DNA of 44,763 bases, taken from contig CAYJQM010000001.1 in the NCBI GenBank assembly GCA_964372405.1, forward strand, positions 1 through 44,763, written 5' to 3'. The translations under genes were made by a program, and so were the position numbers. Position 1 is the stretch's first letter. Each line of letters begins with the position of its first letter. A model generated the notes under the pieces. The model searched no databases. It was given only the letters and a program-made list of their open reading frames with translations, and was not told where the DNA came from. Of the stretch, positions 2,594 to 44,763 are shown one piece after another. Source of the DNA: an uncultured archaeon (GTDB lineage: Archaea; Aenigmatarchaeota; Aenigmatarchaeia; Aenigmatarchaeales; JACQIB01).

Positions 2594-3675
2594 TTAATCT
2601 CCTTTTTACAAAGATCACTCAAAACTTTCTGAGCCATCAATCCAGCGTTTTTCCAGCTTAACTGCGATGCACGTTCCAATGAAAGCTCCGCATACCTTTT
2701 ACGCAACTTCTCATCATCAACTAATTTTTCTATTGCTTCGGATGTATGTTCTACATCAGGATATGTTAAGATGCCATACTTTCCAACAACCTCAGGCATA
2801 GTTGTAACATTTGATGCAATCACAGGAACGCCGCAAGCCATGGCTTCTACAATCGGCAATCCGAAACCTTCGGCAAGTGTTGGATAAACAAAAATATCCA
2901 AAGAGTTTATGAATTCGACCATTTTGCTGTCCGGTAAAGGCGACTGGAAGTATGTGTTTGGTATGTTCATTGACCGGAATATTTCAGTATTCCTGCCGCT
3001 GCCCACCATGTGCAGTTCTATGTCTGAACGCTTCTTTGACAATTGTGCAAAGCTTTTTACAACTAGTTCTGCGTTCTTCCTTCCATCAAAGCCACCGAAG
3101 TAACCAATTTTTACTTTTCCGTTTGGTTCATGTTTAATGGGTCTGTAGACACCTTGATCTACACCACAATAAATAACTTTTACTTGTTCGTCTCTAAGGT
3201 TTGTAGAATTTAGTATGTCTTGTCGTGCTGTGTTGCTAAGTGCTATCAACACATCGGAATTCTTTGCAAGTTTAAAGCAGCGCTTTATCCATGCATCCGC
3301 TATGCGATCTTGCAAAGTCATGTTATTGTTTTTCATCCATGGTACTGCATCCAAGACCGAAACAGCTCTCGGAGTTTTCTTTGCTGCCGCAAGCGCTGCA
3401 CCAGTTGTTATGTAGTCAGAAAAGTAAACGTCAGCTGTGGCATTGCGCATATGTTTGTATAGAGAAAAATGATAGGCCATCCAGCTAAATTTTGGTGATG
3501 GTATGGTTTTAATCCAGCTTTCTTCAGGTTTGTAATCATCTCTTACCAAAAGTGTTACGTCTTCACCAAGCCTAAAGAGCTCGCGGCTGATGTTGTAAAT
3601 ATACTTGCTTATGCCACGGCTTGTTCCAATAACACCGCTTTGCGGGCATGTGTGAGCAGCTATCAATATTTTCAT
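2590..3675 (-). CDS. family 1/4 (GT-B) glycosyltransferase
   Basis: C-terminal ..YPTLAEGFGLPIVEAMACGVPVIASN.. is the EX7E-type GT4 signature. The start ATG overlaps the micro-ORF stop as ATGA. Confidence 0.8.
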   Translation of the reverse strand: MKILIAAHTCPQSGVIGTSRGISKYIYNISRELFRLGEDVTLLVRDDYKPEESWIKTIPSPKFSWMAYHFSLYKHMRNATADVYFSDYITTGAALAAAKKTPRAVSVLDAVPWMKNNNMTLQDRIADAWIKRCFKLAKNSDVLIALSNTARQDILNSTNLRDEQVKVIYCGVDQGVYRPIKHEPNGKVKIGYFGGFDGRKNAELVVKSFAQLSKKRSDIELHMVGSGRNTEIFRSMNIPNTYFQSPLPDSKMVEFINSLDIFVYPTLAEGFGLPIVEAMACGVPVIASNVTTMPEVVGKYGILTYPDVEHTSEAIEKLVDDEKLRKRYAELSLERASQLSWKNAGLMAQKVLSDLCKKEIK

Positions 3676-3740
3676 TTTTGCTCACCAATTTTAAGTGCAA
3701 AAGTGTGTTGATGATTCAATTTCATAAAGGTCAACTTCAT
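3672..3740 (-). CDS. 22-codon micro-ORF (MKLTFMKLNHQHTFALKIGEQK), overlapped as ATGA at both ends with the flanking genes
   Basis: It has its own GGTGA SD 7 nt upstream of the ATG (3738-3740). Stop TGA is at 3672-3674. The first 15 codons are nucleotide-identical to the micro-ORF at 39748-39807. It is below the ORF-track length cutoff. Translation is not demonstrated. Confidence 0.35.
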   Translation of the reverse strand: MKLTFMKLNHQHTFALKIGEQK

Positions 3741-3767
3741 TTTTGCTCACCAATTTGGGGTGCGAAA
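3672..3767 (-). repeat. SD/start-codon cassette, copy A: two direct copies of AAATTGGTGAGCAAAAATGA 66 nt apart, flanking a 38-46 nt unique segment
   Basis: Manual alignment to 39720-39817 (reverse complement) gives a 61-nt identical core (3696-3756). The downstream module differs by one substitution and one 1-nt indel. A TTTCGCA match lies upstream. Confidence 0.9.
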
Positions 3768-11768: not shown

Positions 11769-11813
11769 TGATTTGCTCTGTGTGAGGCAATCTAGTTATA
11801 ATTAGAAGTATAA

Positions 11814-25089: not shown

Positions 25090-25180
25090 GGTTATGTTGT
25101 ATAAGCGAAAGCTTTAAATAATAGTTAGTATGTATCATATGTAAACTTTACATGATGTAAACGCTAAATGTGAATTGTAT

Positions 25181-25243
25181 GCAAGTGAAGTTGACTGATG
25201 TCAATACACTTGCAAAATAAAACTTGGTGAGTATTTTGCAAGT
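25181..25243 (+). promoter_or_regulatory. two mutually exclusive hairpins around the start region of ORF 25224-25613
   Basis: GCAAGTG (25181-25187) pairs with CACTTGC (25207-25213). ACTTGCAAAATA (25208-25219) pairs with TATTTTGCAAGT (25232-25243) as a perfect 12-bp stem. That stem's 12-nt loop AAACTTGGTGAG holds the GGTGA SD and the TTG/GTG starts. The two stems share CACTTGC. Confidence 0.45.
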
Positions 25244-25613
25244 TAGAATAAAAAGAACTGGAAACCAAACAGCCGTTTTAATTAGTTTTGACACAGACTC
25301 TGAAAAGTTTGACAGCGTTTATGAGAGGAATAAGTTTTTCTCTGAACTTCATGGCAGAAAGCAAATCGTCATAAAAGATGGACGCAGATATGAGTATAGA
25401 AGAGACGGGATGCTTGATGAGGTTCCACATTTGAAAATTGCAAATTCTGTTTTTGTAATTATGCAACAGCACCTGAAGATGATGGAGCAATTTTTCGACG
25501 GATGGGAAGACAAAGTTATGGTGAAAAGTTTTCCAGTGGTCCTAGATAGAAGTGAGTTGAGGGAATTAGAGGATCAGAAGAAGGAAATGGAAAAGGATGT
25601 AGAGGTTGAATAA
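25224..25613 (+). CDS. hypothetical protein (about 125-129 aa, acidic C-terminus)
   Basis: Long ORF with no competing ORF. The start is non-ATG (TTG 25224, GTG 25227 or TTG 25236). No family recognised. Confidence 0.45.
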   Translation: MVSILQVRIKRTGNQTAVLISFDTDSEKFDSVYERNKFFSELHGRKQIVIKDGRRYEYRRDGMLDEVPHLKIANSVFVIMQQHLKMMEQFFDGWEDKVMVKSFPVVLDRSELRELEDQKKEMEKDVEVE

Positions 25614-25665: not shown

Positions 25666-25684
25666 GACGTTGCGAAGCAACGTC
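25666..25684. terminator. hairpin GACGTTGC-GAA-GCAACGTC (GCGAAGC core) between ORF 25224-25613 and cdc48
   Basis: Perfect 8-bp stem with a GAA loop. It is preceded by GTTTAC-TTT-GTAAAC (25622-25636) and the 12-bp palindrome GACCTATAGGTC (25642-25653). It may act as a terminator or as cdc48 5'-UTR structure. Confidence 0.5.
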
Positions 25685-28393: not shown

Positions 28394-28446
28394 CTGCATT
28401 GCGAAGCAATGCAGTTATTTGATTGCTGAACTGCTTCGCAGTTCAG
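28394..28446. terminator. pair of perfect 9-bp hairpins between convergent genes: CTGCATTGC-GAA-GCAATGCAG and CTGAACTGC-TTC-GCAGTTCAG
   Basis: 28394-28414 and 28426-28446. Each contains the GCGAAGC heptamer (the second on the opposite strand), so one hairpin is oriented for each converging transcript. Confidence 0.6.
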
Positions 28447-28455
28447 TCGTAAATA

Positions 28456-31018: not shown

Positions 31019-31618
31019 ATGCCAAAACTCATCGTAAGTCTTGACAAGAAGAAATGTACCGGTATTGGTTATTGTCAATCTGTACAGCCAATTCTATGGT
31101 CCGTCACTGATAGAAAAGCCAAGCTTTTGAAAGGTAGTTTGAAAAAAGAAGACACCTATGAAGTGGATGCTGACGAATCTACTATGAAGGCAATACAAGA
31201 ATCTGCGCTCGTATGTCCGAATTATGCAATAGAAGTTCTCGACGACAAAGGTAATAGCATTCTCGGCATAAAAGGTGGAAAGTCGGTTAAGTTCAGAATA
31301 ATTAAATCTCATTATGACAGCAGGAAAGAGTGGGTTATGGATCCAATGGGCTTCTTTACAATAAAGCCATTTCCAAAAGAAAATATAATAAGAGTAAGAT
31401 TTTACAACAGCGAGTATCAATTGGCTGTCTTGATAGAAGGGGAAAATGCAGAAGACATATTCAATACTATTGTAAGGGAAAAGCTACTAACATCGTTAGC
31501 GCATGCGGCTTACCTAGGAAGCGAGCTTCAGAAAGCAGAAATAGCCCTTAAGTTAGGCGTCGAATACATACAAGACGATCCATTAGATTTAAATAAAAAG
31601 CCGATAGAAAAGCAATAA
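31019..31618 (+). CDS. fusion of a single-cluster ferredoxin domain and a DUF4346-like domain
   Basis: N-terminal KCTGIGYCQS..ALVCPNYAI is a CxxGxGxC...CP ferredoxin pattern. C-terminal ..WVMDPMGFFTIK..HAAYLGSELQKAEIAL..YIQDDP resembles DUF4346. Confidence 0.5.
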   Translation: MPKLIVSLDKKKCTGIGYCQSVQPILWSVTDRKAKLLKGSLKKEDTYEVDADESTMKAIQESALVCPNYAIEVLDDKGNSILGIKGGKSVKFRIIKSHYDSRKEWVMDPMGFFTIKPFPKENIIRVRFYNSEYQLAVLIEGENAEDIFNTIVREKLLTSLAHAAYLGSELQKAEIALKLGVEYIQDDPLDLNKKPIEKQ

Positions 31619-31628
31619 GTGATGTTTT

Positions 31629-32138
31629 ATGAAAGTATTATTGATATTCCCTCCACAAAACTTGGATCAAAGATATTCTCGTGACTTCGGGAATGTTGGA
31701 GGCTTTCTCCCACCGTTAGGCTTATGCTACATGGCAGCTGTCCTAGAAAAAGCCGGACACGAAGTTCGCATTATGGACTGTCCGGTCAATAATTTTGGTG
31801 CAGAAGACATAATGAAAGAAGTTACAAACTTCAATCCAGAATTCGTAGGTATTGCTGCTATAACAACTCCATTTCCCGGAACGCAGTTGTGGGATAACTA
31901 CGAAAAATACGGCACGCTTGATAAGAATTTCAGTGAATATCATGGATGGTCTCCTGTTTTCGTTCCTTTCGGCTACAAGAACCGAGAAGAATTAATGGCG
32001 ATGAATAAGGAAGCTTTCAGGAGATTCTACTTCAGACCTCAGTATGTTCTAAATAGAATAACAAAAATAAAATCTTTTTCTGAATTGAAAAGGAACTTAG
32101 CTGGCATAAAAGTTGTCACAGGAATGGTCAACGGTTAA
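31629..32138 (+). CDS. B12-binding-domain protein, an internally deleted but in-frame derivative of a B12-binding radical SAM enzyme (possible pseudogene)
   Basis: MKVLLIFPP..PPLGLCYMAAVLEKAGHEVRIMD..EFVGIAAITT is the B12-binding domain. It is joined directly to ..PFPGTQLWDNYEKYG..FRRFYFRPQYV.., the post-barrel C-terminal region. There is no CxxxCxxC motif. A GTGAT SD precedes the ATG. Confidence 0.6.
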   Translation: MKVLLIFPPQNLDQRYSRDFGNVGGFLPPLGLCYMAAVLEKAGHEVRIMDCPVNNFGAEDIMKEVTNFNPEFVGIAAITTPFPGTQLWDNYEKYGTLDKNFSEYHGWSPVFVPFGYKNREELMAMNKEAFRRFYFRPQYVLNRITKIKSFSELKRNLAGIKVVTGMVNG

Positions 32139-32190
32139 CTGCTTCTAGAGAAGCCAAATTTATTTATACGTAAAATATAGCACTTATCTT

Positions 32191-32697
32191 ATGTATGCCG
32201 ATGCAGGCCATTCCATTGCTAATGGCAAGAAGTTGCCTAAGACTGATCCGATCTTCGAACTTATCGGATCTCTCGATGAACTAAACTCTTTTGTTGGATT
32301 GGTTAGGGTTAACATAAGAAACGAAGAAGTTGATAACTTACTAAAAAATATTCAAGATAAAATATTTACAGCAGGAGCCGACATAGGATACAATAAAGAT
32401 GTAAAAATAAATTCTTCCGATGTAAAGTTTCTTGCTGATGCAATAGATCATTATTCCAAACAAATAGAAGAAATACATTATTTCGTTTACCCGATAGGTG
32501 CACAGTCATCAGCACTTTTACATGTATGCAGATCAATTTGCAGGCGTGCGGAGCGTAACGCATTCGCATTTTCAAATCAAGATGTAATAAATCCAGAGAT
32601 TTTGCAGTACCTTAACAAATTGTCCTCATTGCTTTTTGTTCTTGCACGTTTAGCAAACAAAGAAGAAGGCATTAAGGATGAAAAGTGGGGGCGCTAA
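32191..32697 (+). CDS. PduO-type ATP:cob(I)alamin adenosyltransferase family protein
   Basis: ..ELIGSLDELNSFVGLVR.., ..IQDKIFTAGADI.., ..LHVCRSICRRAER.., ..LNKLSSLLFVLAR.. match the Cob_adeno_trans helical bundle. The N-terminal ATP-binding motif is divergent or short (MYADAGHSI). Confidence 0.65.
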   Translation: MYADAGHSIANGKKLPKTDPIFELIGSLDELNSFVGLVRVNIRNEEVDNLLKNIQDKIFTAGADIGYNKDVKINSSDVKFLADAIDHYSKQIEEIHYFVYPIGAQSSALLHVCRSICRRAERNAFAFSNQDVINPEILQYLNKLSSLLFVLARLANKEEGIKDEKWGR

Positions 32698-39590: not shown

Positions 39591-39698
39591 GAGTTCATTA
39601 GGCTTCTAGAGAATAAAAAGGTTTCGTGATGGCGAACGTTTAAATGTTTAACAGGAACATATAAATCATTAAAATATAACTGAGTTGTAAAAAAAGAA

Positions 39699-39715
39699 GT
39701 TTAACTTCGTTAAAC
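39699..39715 (+). promoter_or_regulatory. hairpin GTTTAAC-TTC-GTTAAAC at the predicted 5' end of the cassette B / rSAM transcript
   Basis: Perfect 7-bp stem with a TTC loop closed by C-G. It lies downstream of TATA-like CATATAAATC / AAAATATAAC (about 39657-39680). Confidence 0.4.
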
Positions 39716-39719
39716 ATAT

Positions 39720-39817
39720 TTTCGCATTTAGAAATTGGTGAGCAAAAATGAAGTTGACCTTTATGAAATTGAATCATCAACACACTTTTGCATTTAGAAA
39801 TTGGTGAGCAAAAATGA
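39720..39817 (+). repeat. SD/start-codon cassette, copy B: 28-nt direct repeat GCATTTAGAAATTGGTGAGCAAAAATGA at 39724-39751 and 39790-39817, 66-nt period
   Basis: The two 28-mers are identical. The 61-nt core 39732-39792 is identical to the reverse complement of 3696-3756. Confidence 0.9.
39748..39807 (+). CDS. 19-codon micro-ORF / candidate leader peptide (MKLTFMKLNHQHTFAFRNW)
   Basis: The GGTGA SD lies 7 nt before the ATG. Stop TGA is inside the GGTGAG SD of the radical SAM gene, 6 nt before its ATG. Paralogous to the micro-ORF at 3672-3740. Confidence 0.35.
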   Translation: MKLTFMKLNHQHTFAFRNW

Positions 39818-41346: not shown

Positions 41347-41484
41347 TTAGTTTAGCTGAAATCCTTCTTCTGGATTAGGTCGTCTTTTCTTAGGAAATAT
41401 ATCCGGTTCCATGTCGGCATCGCAATTTGCGTAATTAAAAGAAAAGGTTTCTTCGAAAACTACATCGAAGTTCGGTTCGGGCAT
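41347..41484 (-). CDS. 45-aa acidic micro-protein (MPEPNFDVVFEETFSFNYANCDADMEPDIFPKKRRPNPEEGFQLN)
   Basis: ATG at 41482-41484, TAA at 41347-41349. A TATA-like GCTTATATTCC box (41503-41513, minus strand) lies about 20 nt upstream. It is below the ORF-track cutoff and matches no recognised family. Confidence 0.25.
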   Translation of the reverse strand: MPEPNFDVVFEETFSFNYANCDADMEPDIFPKKRRPNPEEGFQLN

Positions 41485-41534
41485 GAATTTAATGTGTCAA
41501 AAAGGAATATAAGCATATGTATTCTGTAGTTTTT

Positions 41535-41583
41535 ACTTTCCTACGGTAATCGTAGCGTAGGAAAGTGTGTTAACGAAGTTAAC
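41535..41583. terminator. hairpin cluster downstream of pyrG: ACTTTCCTACG..CGTAGGAAAGT (11-bp stem) and GTTAAC-GAA-GTTAAC
   Basis: Stem 41535-41545 pairs with 41556-41566; the loop contains a nested CTACG/CGTAG alternative. The second hairpin is at 41569-41583 with a GAA loop closed by C-G. Confidence 0.5.
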
Positions 41584-41601
41584 TTCATTTTCCTGCAGTA
41601 A

Positions 41602-43717: not shown

Positions 43718-43721
43718 AGCA

Positions 43722-44738
43722 TCACCTGTAATTTAACGGCGTTACTTCAAAATCCCAAGGCTCTGCACTTGGATATTCTTCAACAATTGCCACTTTAAAT
43801 GGGATTTTGCTTGCCAGTCCTTCCGCATCTTTTACTGAAAGCTCTATTCGATTTTTATTGTCGTAGACGACAAAATTATTTTTACCTACTAATCTTTCCA
43901 TTTCGCTGCTAATTTTCTTTAGGTCGTCACCAAAAATTATTCCTTTAAGCAGGAAGCCGTTGTCAGTTACTCCTTCAAAAGGTTTCTTCACATTTGTTGC
44001 ACGATTAATCAAACGATTTCGCAGCTGGTAGTTAAGCTTCAGTGCAGCAGTGCAAAAATGAACAGTAAGGCTTTTGCCGCGTGCATACTTCAAGGCTTTC
44101 AGTGCAGCTTCGTAGCTGCCGTCTATCGCTGTAAGCGTTCCATCTTTCTGGAAGAAACCTTTCATTTCAATCCTGTCGTTATTGCGTTCGCTGAATTCCA
44201 GCTCATTGAGATTTAGCGTATCAACGTTGTTTGCATCAAGGAAGTCTATAAGTTCAAAAACTTTCTTTTCTTCTCCAGGTATGCATGGTATTTCCATTCC
44301 TACTTTCCAGGGGAATTTTCTTGCTATTGGAACTTTGTCTTTGTAAATATGAAAGCGAATTTCATCCAATCCGGCTTCGTAAAGCATTTTCATTTTTGCT
44401 TCATCCAGTTGCCATCCGCTTGTGTACATGTGAATGTGGAAATTTTTGCCAAAATTGCTTTTCAGAAGTTTGATGTAATGTATGACGCGATCCAAGAATG
44501 CAGCAGGCTCGCCTCCGGTTATTCCTGCTCCTGTTGCACCGCAGGCTTTAGCTTCTGCAATAACGTCTTCATCAGTTTTTACAGGTCTTTCGTTCGCGTA
44601 AATGTCGTCTTTCTGCCAGCGATTATGAGATATTGTGCAATACCAACAATCCAAAGGGCATACACCACTTACAAATAGAACCATCTTTCTTCCGGCTATA
44701 CACGATCCGCATCCCTGAGATATTTTTCCTACTGCCAA
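43722..44738 (-). CDS. radical SAM protein (archaeal PflA-related, COG2108-like)
   Basis: ..CGSCIAGRKMVLFVSGVCPLDCWYCTIS.. carries the CxxxCxxC motif. ..GITGGEP.. is the SAM-binding GGE motif. Confidence 0.75.
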   Translation of the reverse strand: MAVGKISQGCGSCIAGRKMVLFVSGVCPLDCWYCTISHNRWQKDDIYANERPVKTDEDVIAEAKACGATGAGITGGEPAAFLDRVIHYIKLLKSNFGKNFHIHMYTSGWQLDEAKMKMLYEAGLDEIRFHIYKDKVPIARKFPWKVGMEIPCIPGEEKKVFELIDFLDANNVDTLNLNELEFSERNNDRIEMKGFFQKDGTLTAIDGSYEAALKALKYARGKSLTVHFCTAALKLNYQLRNRLINRATNVKKPFEGVTDNGFLLKGIIFGDDLKKISSEMERLVGKNNFVVYDNKNRIELSVKDAEGLASKIPFKVAIVEEYPSAEPWDFEVTPLNYR

Positions 44739-44763
44739 GCTTTCTCCTGGGGTTTCCTGAATT

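Follow-up and report, generated by a model that had tools for sequence, protein, structure and literature searches.

A putative family of hairpin insertions at translation-initiation regions of an uncultivated Aenigmatarchaeota archaeon

Introduction

Contig CAYJQM010000001.1 of an uncultivated DPANN-type archaeon, analysed here over its whole length of 44,763 nt (the window), carries between an epimerase-like gene and a glycosyltransferase gene (GT1) a short unit of the order R-S-R, in which a repeat R stands on both sides of a hairpin module S (locus A, 3672-3767, minus strand). The unit occurs a second time upstream of a gene for a B12-binding radical-SAM enzyme (locus B, 39719-39817, plus strand). 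We find that R is the translation-initiation region (T) itself, comprising a Shine-Dalgarno (SD) motif, a spacer, a start codon and a few further nucleotides, and that the short open reading frame (micro-ORF) spanning the unit is the reading frame of the orphaned upstream start codon. Comparison with related contigs indicates that part of the locus B leader was recently copied, in this lineage only, to an ectopic site at locus A whose junction already held R, and that the unit belongs to a small family of start-region insertions with filled and empty sites among relatives. The unit is a candidate portable translation leader, and a function as a leader gated by an upstream ORF (uORF) appears possible. 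The fuller reading, that copy A is the youngest of a small lineage-specific family of hairpin insertions at translation-initiation regions spread by templated copying or recombination, we consider evenly poised between right and wrong.

Two near-identical copies of a start-region repeat

The 20-mer AAATTGGTGAGCAAAAATGA is present four times in the window (3672-3691, 3737-3756, 39732-39751 and 39798-39817), compared with 0.01 copies expected from shuffled sequences, and the 34-nt S module twice with none expected. The two S copies, one at each locus, are 100% identical, and a core of 61 nt at 3696-3756 is the exact reverse complement of 39732-39792. In a repeat search of the window the match between both loci extended over 68 nt at 97%, and no other near-identical repeats were found beyond these two units. 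The R copies lie 65 nt apart at locus A and 66 nt apart at locus B, and the second R at locus A differs from its counterpart at locus B by one substitution and a 1-nt deletion. The two settings are an N-glycosylation cluster, in which locus A has an Epimerase_2 gene on one side and a Glycos_transf_1 (GT1) gene on the other, and the position directly 5' of the B12-binding radical-SAM gene at locus B.

At locus A the micro-ORF is tied to both neighbours. Its ATG (3740-3738) overlaps the stop codon of the epimerase-like gene (TGA 3739-3737) and its own TGA overlaps the GT1 ATG (3675-3673), giving 4-nt ATGA stop/start overlaps at 3740-3737 and 3675-3672. The micro-ORF at locus B ends 6 nt before the downstream ATG and has no ATGA overlap. 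The double overlap is restricted to locus A because the micro-ORF of locus B stops at the TGA of GGTGA, and the different C-terminal peptide at locus B results from the 1-nt indel between both loci.

A preliminary description of this DNA had given the two overlaps with the same coordinates and codons, the near-identical copy in opposite orientation with its exact 61-nt core and the substitution and 1-nt indel in the second R, and the carriage of a GGTGA SD motif plus ATG by the R copies, and we found all of these as described. It had also placed the 20-nt module at both junctions, which is correct, with a spacing of 66 nt, which is true for locus B and is 65 nt at locus A. The pair of ATGA overlaps behind the translational coupling that it suggested is present at locus A and lacking at locus B.

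Locus B is old and locus A is young

Relatives are named here by contig labels L010 to L026, and percentages given for them are protein identities of the adjoining gene. In the closest lineages with the epimerase/GT1 junction (L013 and L019, epimerase 85-86% identical) a direct ATGA overlap joins the stop of the epimerase gene to the start of GT1, a single R (..CTTGGTGAGCAAAAATGA) lies before it, and there is neither S nor a second R. Since R is single in these lineages, the R1 of locus A is taken as the native junction. More distant relatives (L014 with 80% and L015 with 59% identity) have no R at this junction and their epimerase is 9 codons shorter. R was thus gained at junction A after the split from L014, and S plus R2, together 65 nt, are new and specific to the lineage of the window.

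The history at locus B looks different. Relatives with a radical-SAM protein 92-94% identical (L010 and L020/L022/L023) have the same two-unit tandem with a different sequence; S at locus B is approximately 76% identical to the orthologous S in the 92% relative, and S homologues are present at this locus in all relatives of the 90% cluster. Within each genome both R copies share lineage-specific indels (variant R', TAGGTGAAATTTATGCCTGTTGTAAAAATGA), which points to homogenisation within the genome. The fourfold-degenerate sites of the radical-SAM gene are only 52-58% identical between the window and the 92-94% lineages, and the leader is therefore more conserved than neutral sites. Even in a 72% relative, in which fourfold sites are saturated at 35%, the upstream unit u0 is recognisable with 36 of 45 nt identical and a score of 46 compared with a maximum of 33 in 500 shuffles, and it lies there 220 nt upstream of the start without GGTGA and ATG. 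By these comparisons the unit is old and constrained at locus B. The age of the unit at locus B, the lack of S at junction A in relatives and the 61 identical nucleotides together show that the identity of both loci is recent and that the direction of copying was from B to A, with the second unit of locus B (u1) as the probable donor. A putative promoter element lies upstream (Table 1), and the TATA-to-ATG spacings of other genes imply a locus B leader of approximately 145 nt that contains both u0 and u1.

In relatives the repeat at this locus has misled gene callers. Their radical-SAM proteins are annotated with 5 additional N-terminal residues (MPVVKM..), the extended frame beginning inside R' (L010 1288-1302). 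In L020 (9874-10029) a 51-nt in-frame hairpin insertion has lengthened the second uORF, which was called as a 51-residue product overlapping the radical-SAM start; the call spans 156 nt including the stop codon and hence corresponds to 50 aa plus stop.

A covariance model recovers diverged members

A covariance model was built from eight units and searched with filters off, and it was rebuilt once with two new members in the seed alignment. These two members, D and E, were found by this structure-aware model only. The first model matched D at 25185-25245 (plus strand) with 30.1 bits and an E-value of 0.002 and E at 41533-41588 (minus strand) with 28.8 bits and an E-value of 0.003. The rebuilt model gave 48.6 and 53.6 bits, respectively, and its E-values of 1e-7 to 1e-8 add no support for D and E as both were in its seed. 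No further copies were detected with the models in the window or in approximately 87 kb of relatives outside orthologous positions, and nhmmer returned no members besides A, B and their orthologues.

Member D has a direct repeat of 17 nt and a perfect inverted repeat of 12 out of 12 nt, in which the arm ACTTGCAAAATA faces TATTTTGCAAGT. The downstream gene starts with the TTG in the right copy of T (MQVRIKR..), a start fixed by homologues, and the ATG in the left copy is followed by the same first codons (MQVK..). This gene (25236-25613, plus strand) is conserved, with 108-133 aa in homologues and 43 representatives at E<=1e-3, and no Pfam family covers it; its apparent start codon, TTG, lies within a 12-bp stem that buries it. 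Member E has a direct repeat of 18 nt and an inverted repeat of 14 nt at 93%, and L024 shows the empty site with a single T. Between the CTP-synthase gene next to E and the B12-radical-SAM gene we also observed an ORF of 45 aa, MPEPNFDVVFEETFSFNYANCDADMEPDIFPKKRRPNPEEGFQLN (41347-41484, minus strand), that has its own TATA box 28 nt upstream and is kept in relatives down to approximately 82% identity.

A fifth locus, C, is known from relatives. The 91% relatives L021 and L026 carry a complete S+R-like unit directly upstream of a gene for a radical-SAM protein with DUF8061, and L024 (82% identity) has an empty site there with a leaderless promoter-ATG arrangement. Part of the 51-nt in-frame insertion in the second unit of L020 (B u2) consists of two triloop hairpins, X and Y, and this X-Y insertion recurs at locus C in L021 and L026 with 91% identity over 35 nt. 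A copy at locus C is suspected also in the genome of the window, since relatives carry the unit there and the orthologue in the window is cut by the contig end. The contig end at 44763 was considered as proof of a third copy and is taken as a hint only, as the contig stops 14 nt inside the gene and not in a repeat. Moreover, the Logan contig for the B12-radical-SAM gene (L001) begins with a 30-mer of R2 that occurs once in the window, again a hint, in this case at another R2-type context in that sample.

The preliminary description had proposed a new small repeat family of the lineage, a notion that D and E in the window, the unit at locus C in relatives and the tandem units at locus B bear out; the copying of the unit between loci likewise agrees with the A/B identity and with relatives lacking S at locus A. 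Building a covariance model, as it had proposed, recovered D and E, and the proposed nhmmer search brought no copies beyond A, B and orthologues. Its remark that nothing else in the window is repeated is right for near-identical sequence and wrong for the diverged members at 25170-25243 and 41532-41601 and the degenerate u0. It had further named as a refutation that there be two copies only, with relatives lacking the element; against this stand D and E in the window and, in relatives, the homologous tandems of locus B as well as the unit before a third gene. We had to give up the view of a self-contained cassette wedged between two genes, as R1 at locus A was pre-existing, single in L013 and L019, and only the 65 nt of S and R2 are new. 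The conserved micropeptide gene also had to be abandoned in view of the A/B frameshift, the loss of the ATG in u0, peptide lengths of 13-50 aa and non-synonymous changes. No transposase or terminal inverted repeats were found nearby, as it had stated.

Common architecture of the family

Every member has the order T_left, S, an anti-start arm (antiT), a loop and T_right, and all five loci are co-oriented with the flanking genes. T stands for the local start region, with SD, spacer, start codon and a few nucleotides. Its direct duplication covers 10 nt at C, 17 nt at D, 18 nt at E, 31 nt at A and 33-39 nt at B. The hairpin module S (AGTTnAC..GTnAAC-ACAC; its stem is termed hp1) is conserved and measures approximately 20-34 nt; its AGTT always stands directly behind (A/G)TGA, or behind AAGA in B u0, where the ATG is mutated. 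AntiT, which is specific to each locus, repeats the spacer and start codon of T in inverted orientation and can pair with either T copy; at locus A the partners are the downstream copy at 3681-3673 and the upstream copy at 3746-3738. The inverted repeat of antiT and T measures 9 nt at 89% at A and B and 13 nt at 92% in L010.

A model with two hairpins, hp1 and the stem of antiT with T, leaves 95.5% of cells paired; column shuffles reach 86% and slid controls 36-63%. Four of its pairs change on both sides. These statistics are suggestive only, since they derive from eight related sequences. The predicted folds are significantly stable in three members, with z-scores of -3.3 for D, -3.4 for E and -4.4 for C. 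Perfect short hairpins in the window number 31 compared with 18±5 in shuffles, a modest excess.

The peptides encoded by the micro-ORFs have 13, 15, 16, 19, 22, 29, 33 and 50 aa across close relatives, with varying stop positions, and the u1 uORFs of L010 and L020 differ by two non-synonymous changes and one synonymous change. The uORF frame is open through antiT in all ten units, even across the 51-nt in-frame insertion, and the other non-trivial frame is closed in five of the ten.

Table 1. Positions of family members and associated features (SD, Shine-Dalgarno motif; hp1, stem of the S module; BRE, transcription factor B recognition element).
Feature	Position	Strand	Remarks
Locus A, T/R1	3737-3767	minus	last epimerase-like codons (..FAPQIGEQK, stop); SD GGTGA 3751-3747; ATGA 3740-3737
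Locus A, S module	3703-3736	minus	hp1 GTTGA 3735-3731 with TCAAC 3711-3707, then ACAC
Locus A, anti-start arm CACTTTTGC	3697-3705	minus	complements GCAAAAATG (spacer and AUG) of both T copies
Locus A, T/R2	3672-3702	minus	duplicated start region; SD GGTGA 3686-3682; GT1 ATG 3675-3673
Locus A, micro-ORF, 22 codons	3740-3672	minus	encodes MKLTFMKLNHQHTFALKIGEQK, stop; same frame open in all family members
Locus B, unit u0	39692-39751	plus	start codon now AAG; hp1 GTTTAACttcGTTAAAC 39699-39715; R1 39719-39751
Locus B, unit u1	39752-39817	plus	S 39752-39785 (hp1 39753-39757 with 39777-39781); anti-start arm 39783-39791; R2 39786-39817 with SD 39802-39806; B12-radical-SAM ATG at 39814
Locus B, micro-ORF, 19 codons	39748-39807	plus	MKLTFMKLNHQHTFAFRNW, stop; TGA 39805-39807 inside SD GGTGA
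Locus B, putative archaeal BRE/TATA cgaacgTTTAAAtg	39633-39646	plus	100% conserved in relatives
Member D	25170-25243	plus	5' of conserved 125-aa gene; covariance model, direct and inverted repeats, fold
Member D, T_left	25170-25186	plus	ATG at 25179
Member D, hp1 GTTGACtgatGTCAA	25190-25204	plus	
Member D, anti-start arm	25208-25219	plus	loop holds GGTGA 25226-25230
Member D, T_right	25227-25243	plus	TTG start of the gene at 25236
Member D, uORF	25179-25220	plus	
Member E	41532-41601	minus	begins 1 nt after CTP-synthase stop codon; covariance model, repeats, empty site, fold
Member E, T_left	41601-41585	minus	
Member E, S	41584-41565	minus	hp1 GTTAACttcGTTAAC
Member E, anti-start arm	41566-41553	minus	
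Member E, T_right	41549-41532	minus	native sequence, conserved in L020 and L024
Member E, uORF	41588-41541	minus	
Locus C gene, radical SAM with DUF8061	43722-44763	minus	5' end cut by contig end 14 nt after start codon
Second mini-hairpin family, window	25666-25684, 28394-28414, 28426-28446		
Second mini-hairpin family, relatives	L010 983-1084; L020 9925-9977, ~11770-11800; L021 6252-6300, 6440-6500		

Genomic setting and further observations

The window encodes AglB/STT3, NOG1, CDC48, an aCPSF-like beta-CASP protein and Lhr, and the best named homologues of its proteins are from Aenigmatarchaeota (DPANN). Among the window ORFs scanned with Pfam there are no transposase, Y1/RAYT, IS200/IS605 or cas genes, and no tRNA genes were found in the window. 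Its transcription units mostly open with a gene that lacks an SD and has a TATA-like box at a distance of 27-31 nt from the ATG, so that these first genes appear leaderless; genes inside operons are preceded by GGTGA(T) at 4-6 nt from the start, frequently in combination with an ATGA overlap. Approximately 7 kb from the B12-radical-SAM gene lies a cobalamin-related cluster (31019-32697) with genes for a Fer4 plus pterin-binding-like DUF4346 protein, a B12-binding domain protein and a cobalamin adenosyltransferase.

Several other assignments of the unit were considered and rejected. R as a promoter was dismissed, as its TATA-like TTTAGAAA lies only 21 nt before the ATG compared with 27-31 nt in the leaderless genes here. 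An origin of S as the decayed 5' end of the downstream gene is unsupported at A and B; only the first ~10 nt match, at C and D, and these are not counted because they belong to the duplicated T. In Rfam 15 nothing reached the gathering threshold in the whole window, the best E-values at loci A and B being 0.49-9 and far below gathering scores; matches to C/D-box snoRNA-like families on the antisense strand (E 3-9) were set aside for want of a D box. The exact 20-mer gave single chance matches with unrelated flanks in genome, metagenome and viral contig collections, and S and the R' variant of relatives had no match in viral contigs.

A second family of mini-hairpins was observed in the window and relatives (Table 1). 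It has stems of 7-9 bp, GAA, TTC or AAA triloops and often a ..TGCgaaGCA.. core, is scattered over intergenic regions and leaders, and is present or absent between close relatives, with compensatory arm changes (GAAAATTGC/GCAATTTTC versus GAAAATTGT/ACAATTTTC). In L010 a 97-nt insertion of such mini-hairpins lies between two divergent promoters, 21 nt of which are identical to window 28427-28447. Furthermore, a solitary bona fide Cas1 (TIGR00287, 183 bits) is encoded in 72-82% relatives (L024 4098-5069, L025 4098-5069, L011 4664-5635) between the radical-SAM/DUF8061 gene and a conserved 97-aa membrane-protein gene, corresponding to approximately 43718-43722 of the window. It is absent from the window and the 91% relatives, and neither Cas2 nor a CRISPR array was seen on the Cas1-bearing contigs.

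A probable origin by templated copying and its weak points

The unit of S and R is old in the leader of the B12-radical-SAM gene, where it is duplicated in tandem and its R copies are homogenised in each genome. Junction A first gained a single R and later, in the lineage of the window only, S and a second R, probably copied from locus B by recombination or template switching between R copies. Spread between nearby start regions may have occurred by microhomology-guided template switching or gene conversion rather than by a dedicated transposase, and the inverted antiT arms may be products of the same kind of templated event. We infer template switching from the junctions, which lie directly after ..TGA and before A and within the SD region, and from the locus-specific inverted arms, which can be created in one step. 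One template-switch event can suffice to yield perfect stems and compensatory changes of several bases (PMC8794818). The right copy of T would leave the downstream gene with an intact SD and start, and the orphaned start of the left copy would open a short uORF through antiT whose peptide is itself presumably functionless.

At locus A the uORF would restore an unbroken chain of ATGA overlaps from epimerase to GT1. Translational coupling requires overlaps or very short distances and is lost with gaps of approximately 20 nt (PMC10666635), and a 65-nt insertion would consequently uncouple GT1 unless an ORF bridges it. The 1-nt deletion at locus A puts the micro-ORF in the frame ending at the GT1 ATGA, and the chance of the right frame is approximately 1 in 3. 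The micro-ORF relay may thus matter for the coupling of GT1.

Several observations weigh against this account. The hairpins of A and B are no stabler than shuffles (z about -0.8 to +0.5), E is not 5' of a gene start, and the case for template switching is made from sequence patterns. One S module at five sites, always 3' of (A/G)TGA or AAGA, looks more like the target specificity of an enzyme than like random mutation. Members were counted in only approximately 150 kb of lineage sequence, and the covariation and the ten-out-of-ten open frames are inflated because the units, as paralogues and orthologues that undergo gene conversion with one another, are non-independent. Finally, R is strongly conserved in L012, where it has no SD or ATG, which hints at a function besides translation initiation.

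Alternative explanations

A bolder proposal, which we put forward tentatively and consider rather unlikely, is that the S modules are a new start-codon-targeting insertion class in DPANN archaea, that the duplication of the translation-initiation region and antiT make a portable, uORF-gated two-state leader, and that the class spreads by a templated mechanism or by an enzyme. Simple, often leaderless starts would by this proposal be turned into SD-led, uORF-gated leaders.

Two rival explanations we each consider rather unlikely. S may be a non-autonomous mobile element of the REP, REPIN or PATE-like kind, mobilised in trans and inserted strand-specifically 3' of (A/G)TGA, so that it would land on start codons and ATGA overlaps. 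The constant left boundary of S, its short conserved hairpin with conserved flanks (A..ACAC), the coexistence among relatives of filled and empty sites at A, C and E, a density of at least four loci in 45 kb and a single orientation relative to transcription for every copy are what such an element would leave behind. However, the scanned ORFs of the window contain no transposase, Y1/RAYT or IS200/IS605 gene, the duplications vary from 10 to 33 nt, and locus-specific inverted arms match no known transposition chemistry. In addition, hp1 stems differ between copies, approximately 107 kb of relatives yielded no extra copies outside orthologous sites, and the exact 20-mer is absent from the searched collections save for the chance matches.

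The second rival, equally unlikely in our view, holds that selection maintains a two-state RNA leader, in which antiT would pair with T_left or T_right and translation of the uORF would gate the downstream gene, by ermC-type attenuation or by coupling through unfolding; the family would then be a small regulon including two radical-SAM genes and GT1. AntiT can pair alternatively with both T copies at every locus, and member D, in which a perfect 12-bp stem buries the TTG start, its loop holds the SD and the uORF stops where antiT ends, is a fitting example. The uORF frame being open through antiT in 10/10 units, with the other non-trivial frame closed in 5/10, the conservation of the leader beyond fourfold-degenerate sites and the sense orientation of all copies point in the same direction. 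This has to be set against the weak stems of A and B, the position of E upstream of the promoter of the next gene, the missing ATG of B u0 and the absence of an Rfam family match; moreover, open frames and pairing may be inherited or follow automatically from duplication plus templated inversion.

Two further explanations are highly improbable. The micro-ORFs could encode functional micropeptides, for example precursors of ribosomally synthesised and post-translationally modified peptides (RiPPs) for the adjacent B12-radical-SAM enzyme, as tandem short ORFs lie directly upstream of its gene, the N-terminus M-K/R-L/F-T-F is similar between units, and the weak NCBIfam matches of the enzyme, all far below cut-offs, include RiPP methyltransferases. 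The frameshift between A and B, the lost ATG in u0, the lengths of 13-50 aa in close relatives and the two non-synonymous changes beside one synonymous change between L010 and L020 in u1 speak against a conserved product, as do the 72% relative without a uORF at R and the occurrence of the module before unrelated genes (GT1, the D gene) and beside the 3' region of the CTP-synthase gene. Just as improbable, and disfavoured by us, is a CRISPR-like mini-array or off-target Cas1 integration with a repeat duplicated around a captured spacer. The geometry (period 65-66 nt, R 31-39 nt, S 27-34 nt) and the solo Cas1 beside the locus C gene in L011, L024 and L025 recall such an event, but the "spacers" share homology among themselves and do not differ between A and B, R is a native SD-plus-start region, the duplication varies in length from 10 to 33 nt, the window has no cas gene, the neighbouring 97-aa gene encodes a membrane protein and not Cas2, the Cas1-bearing L024 has empty sites at C and E, and the Rfam CRISPR-DR match (E=1.7) covers hp1 only.

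The least probable explanation, an assembly artefact at locus A by a chimeric path through R, which is common to A and B and would form an R-S-R cycle in a low-k de Bruijn graph, conflicts with the second R at locus A, which differs from both B copies by its own substitution and 1-nt deletion, and with the Logan contig L018 (k=31; run ERR3478686, which may not be the source of the reads behind this metagenome-assembled genome), which runs from the A-specific part of R1 into S for 10 nt and stops at the very point where 30 nt of A and B become identical.

Significance

Were the family general in these archaea, it would offer a route to rewire gene starts, from leaderless or coupled to SD-led behind a uORF and a competing hairpin, that is transferable between genes. 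It would then represent a rare natural portable translation-initiation module and a testable case of hairpins and uORFs arising by templated mutation instead of point mutations. Even as a mutational by-product only, the units would mark recombination or template switching between start regions. For gene callers they call for caution, given the 5-residue N-terminal extensions and spurious 50-aa ORFs annotated at unit sites in relatives.

Comparison with known systems

Described archaeal elements that duplicate a translation-initiation region and add an anti-start arm were not found in a limited literature search, and no relative was found at the level of sequence; the comparison is therefore one of architecture. 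The REP/REPIN-RAYT system shares with the present family short extragenic non-coding hairpins with a conserved flanking motif, dispersed in transcribed intergenic regions and evolving within the genome (PMC2817692, PMC3116915). REPs are, however, bacterial, present in more than 100 copies that are nearly identical per genome, paired in inverted orientation and linked to RAYT, whereas the present family is archaeal, with a handful of copies seen (four loci in this 44.8-kb contig), variable stems, no RAYT seen, and a flanking start-region duplication and inverted arm. Pneumococcal BOX elements (boxA-boxB(n)-boxC) are likewise modular small repeats with a tandem internal module, hairpins and transcription together with their neighbours (PMC3049150), but their modules are fixed in sequence, contain no SD or start of the downstream gene and have no sequence similarity to the family. 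Miniature inverted-repeat transposable elements are marked by terminal inverted repeats and short target duplications of fixed length; here the inverted repeats are internal hairpins (hp1, and antiT with T), and the duplications measure 10, 17, 18, 31 or 33-39 nt by locus. CRISPR arrays differ as well, since the S units are homologous with the same S at both loci, no cas gene is present in the window and no CRISPR-DR family reaches the gathering threshold.

On the side of regulation, ermC and cat attenuators combine a uORF that has its own ribosome-binding site with alternative stems, one of which sequesters the main start region (PMC5499644, PMC5118997), and in silico the present uORF also overlaps an arm of alternative start-masking stems. 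Erm leaders need a specific stalling peptide and a drug, whereas in this archaeal family peptide sequences and lengths vary across units, without a conserved stalling peptide, and the competing partners are duplicates of one start region. Termination-reinitiation at ATGA (PMC6728339, PMC10666635) is matched by the overlaps at both ends of the locus A micro-ORF and by the plain ATGA overlap of the ancestral junction in L013 and L014, but no relay by way of an inserted ORF of 22 codons is known there, and locus B has no overlap. Hairpin mutations by template switching similarly leave neighbouring sequence copied in perfect inverted form over 10-14 bp, and stems with compensatory changes of several bases (PMC8794818). 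The cases described are local events, to which the present family adds a shared S module and a direct target duplication each time, and as a whole it resembles known small interspersed hairpin repeats as well as uORF leaders.

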